From NCBI RefSeq assembly GCF_056712565.1, contig NZ_CM160072.1: a DNA stretch of 64,000 bases; one strand, given 5' to 3'. The notes beneath the pieces are model-generated. The model was not told where the DNA came from. It worked only from the letters and a program-made list of their open reading frames with translations, and searched no databases. Below are positions 1,888 through 60,359 of the stretch, in pieces (positions within the stretch are counted from its first letter, which is position 1; every line of letters begins with the position of its first letter). The translations under genes were made by a program, and so were the position numbers.

Positions 1888-3315
1888 ATGTCGATCAAAA
1901 CCAGTAATACAGATTTTAAGACACGCATTCGTCAGCAAATTGAAGATCCGATCATGCGCAAAGCGGTGGCAAACGCGCAGCAGCGTATTGGGGCAAATCG
2001 GCAAAAAATGGTCGATGAATTGGGGCACTGGGAGGAGTGGCGCGATCGGGCCGCCCAGATACGTGATCATGTTCTGAGTAATCTCGACGCTTATCTGTAC
2101 CAGCTCTCAGAAAAAGTGACGCAAAACGGAGGTCACGTCTATTTTGCAAAAACCAAAGAAGACGCCACCCGCTACATTTTACAGGTTGCCCAACGCAAAA
2201 ATGCCCGGAAGGTGGTGAAATCTAAATCGATGGTGACCGAAGAGATTGGTGTCAATCATGTGTTGCAGGATGCCGGGATTCAGGTGATTGAAACCGATCT
2301 GGGTGAATACATTCTCCAGCTGGATCAAGATCCGCCCTCTCATGTTGTGGTCCCGGCAATTCATAAAGATCGCCATCAGATCCGTCGAGTGCTACACGAA
2401 CATCTGGGCTATGAGGGGCCGGAAACGCCTGAAGCGATGACCTTATTCATTCGGCAAAAAATCCGCGAAGATTTCCTCAGTGCTGAAATAGGTATTACCG
2501 GCTGTAATTTCGCGGTGGCAGAGACCGGTTCGGTATGCCTGGTGACCAATGAAGGTAATGCGCGAATGTGTACCACGCTGCCTAAAACGCATATTGCAGT
2601 GATGGGAATGGAGCGTATTGCTCCCACGTTTGCAGAGGTAGATGTATTGATCACCATGCTGGCGCGCAGTGCCGTTGGTGCACGTTTGACGGGATACAAC
2701 ACCTGGCTGACAGGACCGCGCGAAGCGGGGCACGTTGATGGTCCTGAAGAGTTTCATCTGGTTATTGTCGATAACGGGCGTTCTGAGGTGCTGGCCTCTG
2801 AATTTCGGGATGTGCTGCGCTGTATTCGTTGCGGGGCTTGTATGAATACTTGTCCGGCATATCGCCATATTGGCGGTCATGGATATGGCTCTATTTATCC
2901 AGGGCCAATTGGTGCGGTGATTTCCCCGTTACTTGGCGGCTATAAAGATTTTAAAGATTTACCCTACGCCTGCTCTTTATGCACCGCTTGTGACAGCGTG
3001 TGTCCGGTGCGTATTCCGCTGTCAAAACTGATTTTGCGTCATCGTCGGGTGATGGCTGAAAAAGGGATCACCGCAAAAGCAGAGCAACGGGCGATAAAAA
3101 TGTTCGCTTATGCCAATAGTCATCCAGGATTGTGGAAAGTTGGGATGATGGCTGGTGCTCATGCGGCAAGCTGGTTTATCAATGGCGGCAAAACACCACT
3201 CAAATTTGGCGCGATTAGCGACTGGATGGAAGCACGCGATCTTCCTGAAGCTGACGGAGAGAGTTTCCGTAGTTGGTTTAAGAAACATCAGGCGCAGGAG
3301 AAAAAGAATGGATAA
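1888..3315 (+). CDS. ykgF: LutB-like iron-sulfur protein (YkgF)
   Basis: 475-aa ORF; two ferredoxin-type cysteine motifs visible (CIRCGACMNTCP and CSLCTACDSVCP); 10 bp after ykgE. Confidence 0.9.
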   Translation: MSIKTSNTDFKTRIRQQIEDPIMRKAVANAQQRIGANRQKMVDELGHWEEWRDRAAQIRDHVLSNLDAYLYQLSEKVTQNGGHVYFAKTKEDATRYILQVAQRKNARKVVKSKSMVTEEIGVNHVLQDAGIQVIETDLGEYILQLDQDPPSHVVVPAIHKDRHQIRRVLHEHLGYEGPETPEAMTLFIRQKIREDFLSAEIGITGCNFAVAETGSVCLVTNEGNARMCTTLPKTHIAVMGMERIAPTFAEVDVLITMLARSAVGARLTGYNTWLTGPREAGHVDGPEEFHLVIVDNGRSEVLASEFRDVLRCIRCGACMNTCPAYRHIGGHGYGSIYPGPIGAVISPLLGGYKDFKDLPYACSLCTACDSVCPVRIPLSKLILRHRRVMAEKGITAKAEQRAIKMFAYANSHPGLWKVGMMAGAHAASWFINGGKTPLKFGAISDWMEARDLPEADGESFRSWFKKHQAQEKKNG

Positions 3316-4003
3316 TCGGAGCAAATTTTTGAATAACGTTGCTCAGGCACTGGGGCGCCCGCTGCGACTTGAACCGCAAGCAGAAGATGCGCCGCTTAAC
3401 AACTATGCTAACGAGCGGCTTACCCAACTTACCCAACAGCAGCGCTGTGACGCGTTTATCCAGTTTGCCAGCGATGTTATGTTGACGCGCTGTGAACTGA
3501 CCAGCGAGGCGAAGGCGGCAGAAGCTGCAATACGTCTGTGTAAAGAGCTGGGAGATCAGTCGGTCGTGATTAGTGGTGACACGAGGCTGGAGGAATTGGG
3601 GATTAGCGAACGTTTGCAGCAGGAATGCAATGCCGTTGTTTGGGATCCGGCGAAAGGTATTGAGAACATATCACAAGCAGAGCAGGCTAAAGTGGGCGTC
3701 GTATATGCTGAATATGGTTTAACCGAATCGGGAGGCGTGGTTCTTTTTTCCGCCGCCGGGCGCGGGCGTTCATTGAGCCTGCTCCCGGAATCTTCTCTTT
3801 TTATCCTGCGTAAAAGCACAATCCTGCCGCGTGTAGCGCAACTCGCAGAAAAATTGCATCAGAAAGCGCAGGCCGGTGAACGAATGCCGTCATGTATTAA
3901 CATCATCAGTGGTCCCAGTTCAACGGCGGACATTGAGCTTATCAAAGTCGTCGGGGTTCATGGTCCGGTGAAAGCGGTGTATCTGATTATTGAGGATTGC
4001 TGA
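3308..4003 (+). CDS. ykgG: LutC-like protein (YkgG)
   Basis: In-frame ATG at 3308 overlapping the ykgF stop gives 231 aa (MDNRSKF...), the expected size; the longer ORF from 3155 is an upstream extension inside ykgF. Confidence 0.85.
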   Translation: MDNRSKFLNNVAQALGRPLRLEPQAEDAPLNNYANERLTQLTQQQRCDAFIQFASDVMLTRCELTSEAKAAEAAIRLCKELGDQSVVISGDTRLEELGISERLQQECNAVVWDPAKGIENISQAEQAKVGVVYAEYGLTESGGVVLFSAAGRGRSLSLLPESSLFILRKSTILPRVAQLAEKLHQKAQAGERMPSCINIISGPSSTADIELIKVVGVHGPVKAVYLIIEDC

Positions 4004-31270: not shown

Positions 31271-32234
31271 ACTGAAAAAACGCCATGAATTCTGGCTGGC
31301 ATTACTGATTGTGGTGCTGTTTGTTGGCCTTGCCTGGCGCAGCGACGAGTTTCTGACATTCGGTAATTTGTACGATCTCGCCAATAACTATGCCATGTTG
31401 ACTATTCTCGCCTGTGGTTTGTTTGTGGTGTTAATTTCCGGTGGGATTGATATTTCGTTTCCGGCAATGACCATCATTGCGCAATACGGCATGGTGCTGC
31501 TGCTGCAAAAAATTGGTGGCAACTTTGCTGTCGCGTTTGCCCTGGCGGGCGGCATCGGCATTTTACTTGGCTTAATTAACGCCTTACTGGTTAATCGCCT
31601 ACGGGTGCCTTCTATCATCATCACTATCTCGACGCTGAATATTTTTTATGGCCTGCTGTTATGGTTGAGTAAAGGTGTGTGGCTGTACGACTTTCCGCCG
31701 TGGTTTGAGCAGGGGGTAATGTTGTTCAAGTACACCGATGCTGATGGCTATGACTATGGCCTTGGTCTGCCGCTGATCGCCATGATTACGGTGGTGCTGC
31801 TGACAGCGTTTATCATGAATTTCACCAGTGTAGGGCGCAAAATTTATGCCCTTGGCGGGAACCGCGAATCAGCCAGTCGCATCGGCTTTAGTGTGCTGAA
31901 ACTGCAACTTTTCGTCTATGGCTATATGGGATTGATGTCTGGTGCTGCGGGTGTAGTGCAGTCGTGGACGGTGATGACTGTCGCCCCCGATTCTCTTCTG
32001 GGTTATGAGCTGACAGTACTGGCTGCGGTGGTGCTTGGCGGCACTAGTTTGCTCGGCGGGCGCGGCACGTTAACCGGTACTTTGCTCGGCGTGGTGTTGT
32101 TGGCAGTGATGCAAAACGGGCTAAATTTATTGGGAGTCTCGTCTTACTGGCAAACATTGATCACCGGCATCATCATCGTTGCCAGCATTAGCGCCACGGC
32201 GTGGAGTCAGCATCAGAACCGGAGTCTGCTATGA
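31263..32234 (+). CDS. ABC transporter permease (RbsC/LsrC-like)
   Basis: 323-aa polytopic membrane protein; start overlaps the ATPase stop. Confidence 0.85.
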   Translation: MAELKKRHEFWLALLIVVLFVGLAWRSDEFLTFGNLYDLANNYAMLTILACGLFVVLISGGIDISFPAMTIIAQYGMVLLLQKIGGNFAVAFALAGGIGILLGLINALLVNRLRVPSIIITISTLNIFYGLLLWLSKGVWLYDFPPWFEQGVMLFKYTDADGYDYGLGLPLIAMITVVLLTAFIMNFTSVGRKIYALGGNRESASRIGFSVLKLQLFVYGYMGLMSGAAGVVQSWTVMTVAPDSLLGYELTVLAAVVLGGTSLLGGRGTLTGTLLGVVLLAVMQNGLNLLGVSSYWQTLITGIIIVASISATAWSQHQNRSLL

Positions 32235-33187
32235 AAAAATCGTGGCGTAATAACGTTGAGTTTTACTTGATCGGCCTGCTGGTGCTAACTGTTGCCGCCT
32301 TCAGCATTACTATGCCGGAGATTTTCTGGTCGATAAGTAATTTCCAGTCCGTCGCTTCGCAAATGCCCGTGCTGGGCATTCTGGCGTTGGCTATGGCGGT
32401 GACCATGCTTTGCGGTGGCATTAACTTGTCAATTATAGCCACTGCTAACGCCTGTTCACTGGTGATGGCGTGGGTGGCGACTCAGTATCCACCAGGTATT
32501 GCTACGGTTGTCGCTACGCTGCTGGCGGGCGCTGGCGCGGCGGTGATAATCGGTTTATGTAACGGCGTATTGATTGCTGGTATTCGAGTGTCGCCAATTC
32601 TTGCAACACTTGGGATGATGACGTTGCTCAAAGGGGTTAATATTCTGGTGACAGGCGGTAGCGCCATTGCCAATTATCCCTCATGGGTGCTGTGGTTGAA
32701 TCATGCACAGTGGTTCGGTATTCCGCTACCGATGTGGTTGTTTACCGCAGTGGCGCTGGGGCTGTGGATATTGCTGGAGAAAACGCCGCTCGGTAAATCC
32801 ATTTATCTGATTGGTTCTAACGAACGAGCAACACTTTACTCCGGTATTAACACTCGTCGGGTGCTGATATGGGTGTATGTCATTTCCGCCTTGCTTTGTG
32901 CGGTAGCGGCATTTTTGATGATGTCGAAACTCAACTCGGCTAAGGCCTCTTATGGCGAATCTTACTTGCTGGTGTCAATCCTCGCGGCAGTACTCGGCGG
33001 GGTTAATCCGGACGGCGGCAGCGGGCGGATAATTGGTATGGTGCTGGCGCTGTTTCTTCTGCAAATTATTGAAAGCGGCTTCAATATTCTCGGTATAAGC
33101 CCCTACCTGACGATGGCCTTATGGGGAACGTTGCTGCTCTGTTTCATTCAGGCTCGCGGCATGTTAGGGCTGGATCGGGTGGTTTAA
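32231..33187 (+). CDS. ABC transporter permease (RbsC/LsrD-like)
   Basis: About 318-aa membrane protein; ATGA overlap with the upstream permease. Confidence 0.85.
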   Translation: MKKSWRNNVEFYLIGLLVLTVAAFSITMPEIFWSISNFQSVASQMPVLGILALAMAVTMLCGGINLSIIATANACSLVMAWVATQYPPGIATVVATLLAGAGAAVIIGLCNGVLIAGIRVSPILATLGMMTLLKGVNILVTGGSAIANYPSWVLWLNHAQWFGIPLPMWLFTAVALGLWILLEKTPLGKSIYLIGSNERATLYSGINTRRVLIWVYVISALLCAVAAFLMMSKLNSAKASYGESYLLVSILAAVLGGVNPDGGSGRIIGMVLALFLLQIIESGFNILGISPYLTMALWGTLLLCFIQARGMLGLDRVV

Positions 33188-33273: not shown

Positions 33274-34323
33274 ATGAAGATCAAAGCTGTTGGTGCATAT
33301 TCCGCTAAACAACCGCTTGAACCGATGGATATCACCCGGCGTGAACCGGGACCGCATGATGTCAAAATTGAAATCGCTTACTGTGGCGTCTGCCATTCCG
33401 ATATCCACCAGGTCCGTTCCGAGTGGGCGGGGACGGTTTATCCCTGCGTGCCGGGCCATGAAATTGTAGGGCGCGTGGTAGCCGTTGGTGATCAGGTAGA
33501 AAAATATGCGCCGGGCGATCTGGTTGGTGTCGGCTGCATTGTCGACAGTTGTAAACATTGCGAAGAGTGTGAAGATGGGCTGGAAAACTACTGTGATCAC
33601 ATGACCGGAACCTATAACTCGCCGACACCGGATGAACCGGGCCATACTCTGGGCGGCTACTCACAACAGATCGTCGTTCATGAGCGATATGTTCTGCGTA
33701 TTCGTCACCCGCAAGAGCAGCTGGCGGCGGTGGCTCCTTTATTGTGTGCAGGAATCACCACGTACTCGCCGCTACGCCACTGGCTGGCCGGGCCGGGTAA
33801 AAAAGTGGGCGTGGTCGGCATCGGCGGTCTGGGACATATGGGGATTAAACTGGCCCACGCGATGGGGGCGCATGTGGTGGCATTTACCACTTCTGAGTCA
33901 AAACGCGAAGCGGCAAAAGCCCTGGGGGCCGATGAAGTTGTTAACTCACGCAATGCCGATGAGATGGTGGCTCATGTGAAGAGTTTCGATTTCATTTTGA
34001 ATACAGTAGCTGCGCCACATAATCTCGACGATTTTACCACCTTGCTGAAGCGCGATGGCACCATAACGCTGGTTGGTGCGCCTGCGACACCGCATAAATC
34101 GCCGGAAGTTTTCAACCTGATCATGAAACGCCGCGCGATAGCTGGTTCTATGATTGGCGGCATTCCAGAAACTCAGGAGATGCTCGATTTTTGCGCCGAA
34201 CATGGCATCGTGGCTGATATAGAGATGATTCGGGCCGATCAAATTAATGAAGCCTATGAGCGAATGCTGCGTGGTGATGTGAAATATCGTTTTGTTATCG
34301 ATAATCGCACACTAACAGACTGA
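33274..34323 (+). CDS. yahK: NADPH-dependent aldehyde reductase YahK (zinc-dependent alcohol dehydrogenase family)
   Basis: 349 aa; GHE..G zinc motif and GxGxxG cofactor motif. Confidence 0.9.
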   Translation: MKIKAVGAYSAKQPLEPMDITRREPGPHDVKIEIAYCGVCHSDIHQVRSEWAGTVYPCVPGHEIVGRVVAVGDQVEKYAPGDLVGVGCIVDSCKHCEECEDGLENYCDHMTGTYNSPTPDEPGHTLGGYSQQIVVHERYVLRIRHPQEQLAAVAPLLCAGITTYSPLRHWLAGPGKKVGVVGIGGLGHMGIKLAHAMGAHVVAFTTSESKREAAKALGADEVVNSRNADEMVAHVKSFDFILNTVAAPHNLDDFTTLLKRDGTITLVGAPATPHKSPEVFNLIMKRRAIAGSMIGGIPETQEMLDFCAEHGIVADIEMIRADQINEAYERMLRGDVKYRFVIDNRTLTD

Positions 34324-34758
34324 AAAAATTAATAAACATCCTGTGGTTTAACATATTAACTTCGCTCCACTTAACTTTTTAGTTAAGGAGAGCGAAATAA
34401 TATCAAAGTAGTGGTAAACCTATAGCGTAAATTCAGATTGTTAAATTAACTCCACTACTTTACACGTTAGTTATGAGCGATTTCTGATAGTGTCTGGTTT
34501 AATCAGAGCTTTATTATCTGCGACGTTTATTTTTATTTAAGAGAGCCACCTGCAAGTTGTTATTCCACCAGAGAGTGAATCGCAAAGCAGGTCATCATTT
34601 CATCTGTATATCTGTATGCCAAATGGCATTCCCCCTCCTTTTTCGCCGATATTTTGTTGTGAACGGCGGAGTTTCGCTTAAAAAAGCACCAGTAGTGGTT
34701 TCGCAGCTATATGGTGTATAAAAAATGTTCTCATACAGATGTTTTGTGAATGTGTGGG

Positions 34759-34787
34759 TTGACATTCATATGAAAAAAATCATAATT
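34759..34787 (+). promoter_or_regulatory. Near-consensus sigma70 promoter candidate (TTGACA, 16-17 bp spacer, CATAAT/ATAATT) with no annotated gene downstream
   Basis: ttgacattcatatgaaaaaaatcataatt read directly; lies in the 880-bp yahK-yahN gap. Confidence 0.4.
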
Positions 34788-35206
34788 CCATCATGTTTGT
34801 GTGGGGTCTTTTCTGTATCTTACGCATCGCACTCAAGCCTGACAGAAAATATGCTGTAAGGCTCATATCAAAAACCGCCATTAGCTCATCAGGAAGAGCA
34901 GACGACAACCAGGATTGTTGTATGGTACGGGGTTCGAGGCCTCGATGGCGGTCCAACTTTTCAAAACTCTTCTGAATCAGATCCCCTTATTTTCATCCCT
35001 GCAAAGTGGAACATTGCCATTGTTTGGCTATTCAGGACGGGTCAGAGCAATGAAAAAAGCCCACACAGGGGAGAGTGGGCTGAAATGGGAAGCTAAAGAC
35101 TCAAGTAAACTTATCGGAAATAAGGACCACGCATTACGGGGGCTATCATCGCCGATGGTCGGGATTCGGCAAATCAGGTTGATTACGTAGAGAGTAAATT
35201 ATCTGC

Positions 35207-35878
35207 TCACCGCTGCGTCACCCCTTCGTAAATCAGGCGTAGCGCGAATACACCAATAATTGCACCAATAACCCGACTGGCAACGCGTTGCATACGCCCA
35301 TAAGCACGACGCACTGCGGGCAAAGAAAACGCCTGACTAAGAAAGACTCGCCAGATAATTGATGCGAGCACAATCCCCGCCCAGGCCATTAAACGTGCCC
35401 ATGTTGGTGTTTCGGCATTTAATGTTACTGAGAAAATACTGATAAAAAATAAAACGGTTTGCGGGTTAGAGAGATCGGTAATTAATCCACGGCGGAAAAA
35501 GACATACCAGGGGGCACTAATCGGTTGTTGTAGTGTGCTCATCTGCGGTGTTGACTGGCGGCGCATGCTACACCACGCAAACCATAAGAGATAAGCGCCG
35601 CCGACGATTCTGATAAGCGAAAAAATCTCCTCACACTGCGTAATTAGCGTTGCAAGACCAAACAAACCCAACCCGGAATAAAACGCATCGCCCAGCGCCA
35701 CGCCCAGTCCGGTCAGCACCCCTGCGCGTCGACCGGAAGCCAGGCTGGTTTGTACTACCACAAAGAGATTGGCTCCCGGATTAAAAAAAGTAATCACGAA
35801 CAGTCCTACGGTCAGATAAACGGCGTGCAAAGGATCCATAGTGATTTCATCCATAAATAAGTGAAGTAACTTCATCAT
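35207..35878 (-). CDS. yahN: LysE/RhtB-family amino-acid exporter YahN
   Basis: 223-aa hydrophobic ORF. Confidence 0.85.
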   Translation of the reverse strand: MMKLLHLFMDEITMDPLHAVYLTVGLFVITFFNPGANLFVVVQTSLASGRRAGVLTGLGVALGDAFYSGLGLFGLATLITQCEEIFSLIRIVGGAYLLWFAWCSMRRQSTPQMSTLQQPISAPWYVFFRRGLITDLSNPQTVLFFISIFSVTLNAETPTWARLMAWAGIVLASIIWRVFLSQAFSLPAVRRAYGRMQRVASRVIGAIIGVFALRLIYEGVTQR

Positions 35879-59767: not shown

Positions 59768-60359
59768 TTTATTTATTATACTACAAGCACAACGACGCCC
59801 CCAGAGACGTAACCTCTGACGCAGACAGATGCTAATTTTTAAGTGTTAAAAATAGCTGATAGCTGAAAAACAAGGGGCTGTCAGGTACGGGGGTAAGAGT
59901 GTGTAATCTTTTATGTAGTTCATATGTTAAGTGTTTGTGTGTTTGGTTTGTATGGTTATTTTATTTTATATATTGTATTTAAATGTGATTTAGTTTGTCA
60001 ATTAATTGCATATTAAAAATATGTTCTATGCACAAATATTGATTATATACATTATGTGAATACATTATGTGGTTGATTGAGAATGATACATTTATATATG
60101 CAATGTGAATATAATGGTTTCATTATATGTGTTGCTGTTAATAAAATAACAGACATTAGAACCTGCTTGTTTATGCATTAATAAAATGAAGTGCAGTAAT
60201 TTACTGAGTTATCAGAGTGGGCGTAATTGCATATTTAATCTTTCCTTTGCCGCTTTTTTGCTAAGAATAAAATCATCTGTACGATAACGACTAATTCTTT
60301 TAATGAATGTTTTTATTCCTGAATACTGCTCCCATAACAAGACGGGGGAGCAGACAATC

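Follow-up and report, generated by a model that had tools for sequence, protein, structure and literature searches.

A conserved tRNA-like element behind a sigma-70 promoter in the yahK-yahN interval of Escherichia coli, and deletion of yahL from the same interval

Background

RNAs that resemble transfer RNA (tRNA) and are matured by RNase P include the MALAT1-derived mascRNA, and tRNA-like domains of this kind occur in tmRNA and YrlA. A second set of relevant genes is found in lambdoid phages. In an Stx2 phage, argN is the middle gene of an ileZ-argN-argO cluster located between Q and stx2, and the three tRNAs around stx2a have been described (PMC7946995). The present work concerns an 81-nt tRNA-like element located between yahK and yahN of Escherichia coli, in a stretch of 64,000 nucleotides of contig NZ_CM160072.1 (RefSeq assembly GCF_056712565.1), called the window throughout. 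The element follows a sigma-70 promoter and an 82-nt leader, and the annotated gene yahM begins inside it. The gene yahL, which K-12 carries in the same interval, is missing. We consider it reasonably probable that the locus combines the scar of a yahL deletion with a promoter-leader-tRNA-like RNA unit that the yahM annotation mis-describes.

Promoter, leader and tRNA-like element

The unit consists of three parts:
34759-34786, plus strand: sigma-70 promoter, TTGACA-16-CATAAT, 11/12 match, predicted start near 34793
34793-34874, plus strand: 82-nt leader from the predicted start to the tRNA-like element, diverging about like the flanking genes
34875-34955, plus strand: 81-nt tRNA-like element of the argN-type family, supported by ARAGORN, the covariance model R1, phage homology and conservation

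The element was first noticed as an invariant block of more than 90 nt in an alignment with K-12 and an outgroup, in which a T-arm, a 3' acceptor strand, a discriminator and CCA could be recognized. ARAGORN called 34875-34955 (plus strand, 81 nt) as its sole prediction in the 64-kb window, and gave no call on 9.6 Mb of dinucleotide shuffles. The acceptor stem has 7 bp (CCGCCAU/AUGGCGG) and is followed by U8 and A9. The D-arm carries A14, G18, G19 and A21, the T-arm (CGGGG-UUCGAGG-CCUCG) carries T54, T55, C56 and A58, the discriminator is U, and CCA is encoded. Acceptor stem, D-arm, T-arm and 3' NCCA are those of a canonical tRNA, but the anticodon arm is not: its loop is CAGGAUU, with A33 and U37, or has 6 nt on a 7-bp stem. 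Between D-arm and anticodon stem there are 3-5 nt, against the single nucleotide (position 26) of a canonical tRNA. The sequence also offers what an RNase P substrate needs, namely acceptor stem and T-arm that can stack coaxially to 12 bp (7 + 5), the T-loop UUCGAGG and UCCA. An Rfam search over 33800-35800 returned no family at E<=1 except a chance match on a terminator hairpin.

In shuffled sequence, about 1.1 matches of 11/12 to the sigma-70 consensus are expected per 64 kb (0.04 in the yahK-yahN gap), and for this reason the promoter match alone is weak evidence. Its support comes from its invariance across the 16 genomes compared and from published reporter data. Constraint was assessed here and below in 15 E. 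coli sequences, 14 of them complete genomes and the fifteenth the window, with the lineage L005 as outgroup. Over 34759-34792, 0 of 34 sites segregate in the 15 E. coli, and 1 of 34 differs from the outgroup. The promoter at 34759-34786 is real, and it is invariant in the E. coli compared. A Reg-Seq preprint took a yahM start site from a genome-wide promoter screen and confirmed it, offset by about 15 bases; mass spectrometry in the same work recovered IHF as a repressor of the yahM promoter in K-12 (10.1101/2025.05.13.653802). We infer that the promoter at 34759-34786 is this reported yahM promoter. Only one other 11/12 match was found in the window, TTGACA-18-TACAAT near 60001 on the minus strand.

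The preliminary description of this interval had reported a near-consensus promoter with a spacer of 16 or 17 nt reaching to 34787, and had stated that it drives no annotated gene. The plus-strand hexamers TTGACA and CATAAT (11/12) stood, while the spacer is 16 and the coordinates are 34759-34786. An annotated gene does follow, as the 91-aa open reading frame (ORF) downstream is the RefSeq-annotated yahM, 81 aa long from the ATG at 34945. The suggestion of a small RNA locus gained support in an unforeseen form, the conserved tRNA-like element after the promoter.

When 34740-34874 was aligned locally with the sequences that precede the element in mEp460, phiP27 and the Stx2 phage, the z-scores were about -0.5 to -0.8, which rules out both the leader as a decayed ileZ and the promoter as a phage late promoter. 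The whole-leader fold has a z-score of -2.8, contributed mostly by the tRNA-like part, and a second leader hairpin is disrupted by the outgroup changes. The leader is identical in 2,963 of 5,168 matching records.

Conservation across genomes

The sequence of the promoter-leader-element unit and its conservation are direct observations. Segregating sites among the E. coli and divergence from L005 are listed per segment:
yahK coding sequence: segregating 4.2%, divergence 11.8%
spacer upstream of the promoter: segregating 15.5%, divergence 29.8%
promoter: segregating 0%, divergence 2.9%
leader: segregating 4.9%, divergence 12.2%
tRNA-like element: segregating 1.2% (1/81), divergence 0% (0/81)
trailer: segregating 12.4%, divergence 15.5%
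yahN terminator: segregating 2.9%, divergence 0%
yahN 3' untranslated region (UTR): segregating 5.0%, divergence 8.5%
yahN coding sequence: segregating 6.2%, divergence 12.9%

Calculated from the segment rates, the probability of 0 substitutions in 81 nt at about 13% divergence is about 2e-5. The sole E. coli variant in the element is T34942C in O157:H7, which turns a G.U pair of the T-stem into G-C. The exact 81-mer was present in 4,821 of 5,170 matching records (93%). Within 450 nt, identical segments alternate with segments diverged by 12-15%, so that a recombination tract can be ruled out as the source of the conservation. The outgroup indels could not be attributed to sequencing errors, as the independent assemblies L005, L050 and L052 agree. 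In another sample of the outgroup lineage (L051, 4282-4362), the closing T-stem pair is lost through a G-to-T change at element position 70; as the assembly comes from a single run, the change may be either genuine or erroneous.

These rates bear on the alternative that an old insertion of phage origin has left the element behind as an inert pseudogene, invariant for some other cause, with a promoter that matters, if at all, through convergent interference with yahN (an excludon). Such a relic should have diverged by 12-15%, as the leader and the trailer did, but 0 of 81 positions changed, and the alternation of conserved and diverged segments on a scale below 100 nt does not allow a recombination tract. 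Moreover, the only E. coli variant improves a stem pair, and variation among the copies from phages, plasmids and the chromosome falls in the anticodon arm, with acceptor, D and T arms preserved throughout. The alternative does account for the failure of the Rfam tRNA model and the non-decoding anticodon arm. It also agrees with the lack of a dedicated plus-strand terminator in our scan, with degenerate copies that stand unannotated in phage clusters too, and with the published listing of yahM-yahN as a convergent excludon in RNA-seq of K-12 MG1655. On balance it was judged unlikely.

Phage relatives of the element

Blastn against phage records matched only window positions of about 34867-34955, at 74-85% identity, in lambdoid and Stx phages. 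The match is argN in the Stx2 phage, and in phiP27 and mEp460 an unannotated degenerate argN copy with the aberrant arm seen in the window. In 23 IMG/VR contigs the same scaffold is labelled 'tRNA-???', has a 6-nt loop and lies between tRNA-Met(CAT) and tRNA-Gly, Arg or Thr. Copies of the scaffold also occur on plasmids, one of them stand-alone with its own terminator next to blaSED. With the Rfam tRNA model, canonical argN scored 53.6 bits and the blaSED-adjacent copy 32.9 bits, which barely passes, while the other degenerate copies fell below the threshold.

These copies make up a degenerate argN-type tRNA-like family as defined in this analysis. The covariance model R1 was built from 12 phage and plasmid copies only, with the window element left out. 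It scored the window element at 88.2 bits (E 1.4e-19), its only match in the window; training members reached 77-97 bits, canonical argN 71 and ordinary tRNAs 31-46. Over 15 family members the three helices are 99% paired, compared to 33-51% in slid controls. The acceptor, D and T arms are kept in the phage, plasmid and chromosomal copies alike, and the anticodon arm varies. Unlike the phage copies, the window element does not lie in a phage tRNA cluster downstream of Q or of a methyltransferase gene, and has neither a flanking tRNA nor phage-like flanks. Judged by sequence and model scores, the element belongs to the degenerate argN-type family of lambdoid phages and is of phage ancestry.

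Some further observations were made on lambdoid tRNA clusters, in many of which (IMG/VR contigs L009-L030; L032 2502-2582; L033 2509-2588; L048 2009-2089) a tRNA-like element occupies the argN slot. These elements have a perfectly conserved acceptor/D/T scaffold and, in place of the anticodon arm, a variable hairpin with a loop of 3-12 nt, score below the Rfam tRNA threshold and are unannotated in the phage records examined. The tRNA-like segment is also matched at 60-80% identity by 146 conjugative Salmonella plasmids. The small RNA (sRNA) family STnc100 (RF02076) occurs about 0.8-1.5 kb downstream of phage and plasmid tRNA clusters (L031 4082-4293, L033 3375-3565, L047 3084-3288); the window holds no counterpart of it. 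In the literature searched on ileZ/argN and tRNA-like elements, nothing specific was found on the degenerate phage 'tRNAs'.

The yahM and 60-aa open reading frames

The ORFs of the interval and the two flanking genes were compared by the ratio of nonsynonymous to synonymous polymorphism (pN/pS), synonymous to nonsynonymous counts and variable sites at codon positions 1/2/3:
34945-35190, plus strand: yahM ORF, 81 aa (RefSeq annotation); pN/pS 1.25 (0.98 with the outgroup), 4 : 16, 8/6/6
34793-34975, plus strand: 60-aa ORF, spanning the leader and the whole tRNA-like element; coding unsupported
33274-34323, plus strand: yahK coding sequence, NADPH-dependent aldehyde reductase, left flank (ORF list, annotation of an identical record); pN/pS 0.06, 30 : 6, 3/3/30
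35207-35878, minus strand: yahN coding sequence, LysE-family transporter, right flank, convergent with the promoter; pN/pS 0.16, 28 : 14, 12/3/27

The ORF list confirmed the coordinates given earlier for the 60-aa ORF (34793-34975) and the 91-aa ORF (34915-35190). Over 34224-35306 the window has 100% identity with the complete genome of strain ZJ3920, in which yahM is annotated at 34945-35190; the 91-aa ORF is therefore yahM read from an upstream TTG.

With a pN/pS of 1.25, the yahM frame shows no purifying selection, and the ORF is not kept up across lineages (O157:H7, ST131-type strains and the L005 lineage). In O157:H7 codon 12 is changed from CAG to TAG (Q12*), and the Prokaryotic Genome Annotation Pipeline (PGAP) calls a shorter ORF there. 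EC958, JKHS006 and NE88 have a -1 frameshift in an A6 run, for which PGAP uses the label 'frameshifted'. In the outgroup yahM has +4, -1 and -1 indels and a stop at codon 12, the same in three independent assemblies. In ED1a and 83972 the product is truncated and out of frame, as judged at the protein level alone. What appeared as 'divergent YahM proteins' at 58-65% identity turned out to be one and the same DNA translated in shifted frames. The error-prone assemblies L006, L007 and L054, whose neighbouring genes are fragmented, were left out of these comparisons. Searches of Pfam, NCBIfam, PHROGs, PADLOC and PDB gave no meaningful match for YahM or for the 60-aa ORF, and no proteomic or ribosome-profiling statement was found in the papers searched that mention yahM. 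The yahM ORF is probably not a functional coding sequence.

It could still be argued that yahM is a genuine small-protein gene, expressed from an mRNA with a structured 5' UTR of about 150 nt. The tRNA-like element would then be a relic, with no effect beyond a modulation of translation through the masking of the Shine-Dalgarno sequence and the AUG. The yahM ATG is formed by the first three bases of the 3' acceptor strand, and its GAGG lies in the T-loop. RefSeq annotates the gene in most genomes, many 81-aa variants exist, and its transcript levels change with conditions; the intact frame and the GAGG, taken up again below, also speak for it. A protein gene would not be expected to show a pN/pS of 1.25 and variable sites of 8/6/6 next to yahK, yahN and yahL, with 0.06-0.16 and a third-position bias, or to suffer nonsense and frameshift changes in O157:H7, ST131-type strains and the L005 lineage. 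YahM has no homologues outside Escherichia and no family match, and what lies on the opposite strand, the yahN terminator and 3' UTR, explains the 3' part of the ORF. We regard this explanation as quite improbable.

For the 60-aa ORF, a leaderless mRNA from the promoter would begin at the ATG at 34793, which is 7 nt past the -10 hexamer. PGAP calls the ORF in a few genomes, only sporadically and as 'hypothetical protein', and it is mostly intact within E. coli. Stops nevertheless interrupt it, in GPEC859 and SMS-3-5 at codon 58 (34964), and in the L005 lineage at codons 4 (34803) and 57 (34962). It shows no coding signature or family match, and its conserved part is exactly the tRNA-like element, so that a leaderless mRNA is hardly credible. 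The small protein considered in the preliminary description could thus not be upheld: nonsense alleles of the 60-aa ORF occur in E. coli and the outgroup, and the ORF gives no sign of coding, while yahM evolves neutrally. Both ORFs appear to be by-products of constrained non-coding elements.

Proposed RNA product

In the reading that we prefer, the sigma-70 promoter, reported to be under IHF repression in K-12, would transcribe the 82-nt leader together with the 81-nt tRNA-like RNA. RNase P is expected to cut at 34874|34875, because a 12-bp helix of acceptor and T-arm with NCCA is a minimal substrate. The 3' end would be trimmed by exonucleases to the encoded CCA, leaving a stable tRNA mimic unused in decoding, and polymerases that read through may proceed antisense into the yahN 3' UTR and terminator. 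The main product of the promoter would accordingly be a processed, stable, non-decoding tRNA mimic. In published work, yahM transcripts rise when STEC strains (E. coli that make Shiga toxin) adhere to epithelial cells, and yahM was found in a small-RNA-enriched library of clinical E. coli and in a multi-stress 'core perturbome'. The tRNA-like element is unmentioned in these papers and in the one that lists the excludon.

Several points weigh against this reading. The 81-nt species, the RNase P cleavage and the CCA 3' end are predictions, and the assignment of the published yahM start site to the promoter at 34759-34786 is provisional. The IHF consensus WATCAANNNNTTR does not occur in 34650-34900 with <=1 mismatch. 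The Rfam tRNA model (RF00005, gathering threshold 29 bits) gave no match to a 111-nt query even at E<=10, and for this reason the element is not a canonical tRNA. A plus-strand terminator scan found none after the CCA, unlike the stand-alone plasmid copy (L046). Covariation in the family is minimal, with one compensatory pair and the remaining pairs invariant; it is uninformative because the family stems are nearly invariant. The outgroup is one well-diverged lineage, of which L005, L050 and L052 are independent assemblies, identical over the region. Finally, the yahM ORF is intact in most E. coli, with GAGG 5 nt before its ATG.

A bolder, and rather unlikely, extension takes the element for a core-genome RNA gene of E. 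coli and relatives, with a regulated promoter of its own, that arose by domestication of a non-decoding tRNA mimic from phages. If so, the mimic would act through the machinery that binds tRNA. It might, for example, serve as decoy or antidote where toxins or nucleases attack tRNA, or regulate by binding to tRNA-handling enzymes. The lambdoid scaffold with its variable anticodon hairpins would then be an unrecognised functional RNA family, and yahM a mis-annotated RNA gene.

K-12 is the most heavily annotated bacterial genome, and a near-invariant tRNA-like gene hidden under yahM, which fails every coding test applied here, would correct its annotation. The element is a concrete and easily testable candidate for a new stable RNA, and it links the chromosome to the widespread degenerate 'tRNAs' of the late regions of lambdoid and Stx phages.

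Deletion of yahL

The second feature of the locus is the loss of yahL:
34545-34546, no strand: deletion junction, 835 bp removed (blastn against K-12, junction probe and junction sequences)

The end of yahK at 34323 and the end of the minus-strand yahN at 35207 enclose a gap of 883 bp, in agreement with the approximately 880 bp noted before. In K-12 the yahK-yahN interval holds yahL and yahM. The preliminary description had supposed that both were missing, with yahL absent and a remnant possibly left by a deletion, and had suggested an alignment with K-12. This alignment bore out the absence of yahL, by a deletion of 835 bp with an exact junction (34545|34546), and showed that yahM is retained; relative to K-12 only yahL is missing. 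The idea of a remnant is right for yahL, whose clean 835-bp scar occurs in about 20% of complete genomes.

With the K-12 locus used for alignment (L002), blastn paired window 34224-34545 with 1501-1836 and window 34546-35306 with 2672-3432. The 835-bp segment found only in K-12 comprises the yahL coding sequence (L002 1843-2658), 6 nt before its ATG and 13 nt past its stop. The blunt junction lacks microhomology. Of 5,426 complete E. coli genomes, 4,076 carry yahL. A 120-nt probe centred on the junction was contiguous in 1,072 of the 5,426 and splits exactly at 60|61 elsewhere. The ST131 strain EC958 is among the genomes with the deletion.

Where present, the orphan yahL is a real coding gene, with pN/pS 0.13, 18 synonymous to 9 nonsynonymous changes and variable sites of 6/3/18 by codon position. 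YahL had no meaningful match in Pfam, NCBIfam, PHROGs, PADLOC or PDB. The short allele might alternatively be an ancestral empty site into which yahL was inserted in other lineages. The indel fits one gene almost exactly (-6 to +13 nt), the G+C content of the yahL segment is 39% versus 53% for yahK, and an imperfect 14-nt direct repeat (11/14) lies at both K-12 ends. This origin is nonetheless very unlikely, since yahL occupies the same position in a lineage 12-13% diverged in yahK/yahN (L005, L050-L052), in a 3-5% diverged lineage (L049) and in the strains SMS-3-5 (phylogroup F) and A0 34/86 (phylogroup B2). In addition, the yahL-less strains group together in one cluster by their flanking genes, and the divergence of yahL from the diverged lineage (78% amino-acid identity) is in step with that of its neighbours. 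A single deletion event has occurred, now found in about 20% of the sequenced complete genomes, and the short allele is a common E. coli variant.

The gene yahL has been proposed as a 'conserved signature protein' marker in quantitative PCR (qPCR) for all E. coli and Shigella (PMC11057252). This proposed marker is missing from about one quarter of complete genomes, ST131-type strains included. Genomic SELEX revealed strong binding of the RpoF, RpoE and RpoH holoenzymes within yahL (K-12 position about 343,660; PMC5493296); this site is absent from the window, having been lost with the deletion.

Upstream of yahK, the presence or absence of permease genes is a second structural polymorphism at the locus. 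ABC-transporter permease genes (window 32201-33187) lie directly 5' of yahK in the window, in ZJ3920 and in both diverged lineages. At that place K-12 and SMS-3-5 have only a 75-nt C-terminal permease remnant (L002 390-464), which in K-12 is adjoined by yahJ. Beyond yahN, the window continues with yahO and prpR. One further feature was noted after yahK:
34361-34396, plus strand: inverted repeat (hairpin) right after yahK, without a U-tract (RNA fold -21 kcal/mol)

This hairpin is also found in K-12 with small indels and may possibly be a 3' stem-loop of yahK.

Trailer, yahN terminator and 3' untranslated region

The remainder of the interval is made up of:
34956-35052, plus strand: variable trailer after the CCA, with no plus-strand terminator found
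35053-35080, minus strand: yahN intrinsic terminator, GCCCAC-N10-GUGGGC + U6 (minus-strand fold), inside the yahM ORF
35081-35206, minus strand: yahN 3' UTR (alignment)

On the strand transcribed for yahN, the terminator has the GC-rich hairpin and U-tract of an intrinsic terminator; it was missed by a simple scan because its loop is 10 nt. The ST131-type variant G35077A gives a G.U pair on the minus strand and a C.A mismatch on the plus strand. The A6 run at 35053-35058 (A5 in ST131-type strains) is, on the other strand, the U-tract of this terminator, so that yahN may be terminated less well with the A5 allele.

The 72 nt at 35087-35158, immediately upstream of the yahN terminator, are free of substitutions in every E. 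coli compared. The outgroup, diverged by 13%, likewise has none in this block and differs by two 1-nt deletions only. This block might be a 3'-UTR-derived sRNA or a binding site. Apart from the terminator, no significant fold was found on either strand of 34956-35210. A promoter-like site of the extended -10 type (9/12) lies at 35283-35256 on the minus strand, upstream of the 72-nt block.

Comparison with known systems

The closest canonical relative is argN, the tRNA-Arg(UCG) of Stx2-converting phages, which has the same 7-bp acceptor stem, discriminator U and encoded CCA as the window element, and near-identical D-arm and T-arm. However, argN has a canonical anticodon arm, while the window element has 3-4 extra nucleotides and a loop with A33/U37. 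Their settings differ as well: argN lies in a late-operon tRNA cluster of the phage between Q and stx, and the window element is chromosomal and solitary, with its own promoter.

The copies in phiP27, mEp460, an IncY plasmid and IMG/VR agree with the window element in scaffold and in the type of aberrant anticodon hairpin, and phiP27 and mEp460 also share its GAGCAGACGACA...TTGTTG arm. Copies in phage clusters follow directly after tRNA-Met/Ile(CAT), whereas the window copy, which is fixed in the species, is preceded by a promoter and an 82-nt leader of unrelated sequence. The L046 copy, on an Enterobacter IncC plasmid next to blaSED, is solitary outside a phage cluster like that of the window and has a 4-nt 'anticodon' loop. 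It carries a strong terminator 6 nt past the CCA and no clear sigma-70 promoter.

No sequence relationship connects the window element with mascRNA, tmRNA or YrlA, and none of these families appeared in the Rfam scan. Like the RNA proposed for the window, they are tRNA mimics that keep acceptor stem and T-arm, and with these probably the enzymes of tRNA processing, without decoding; for the window element processing is a prediction.

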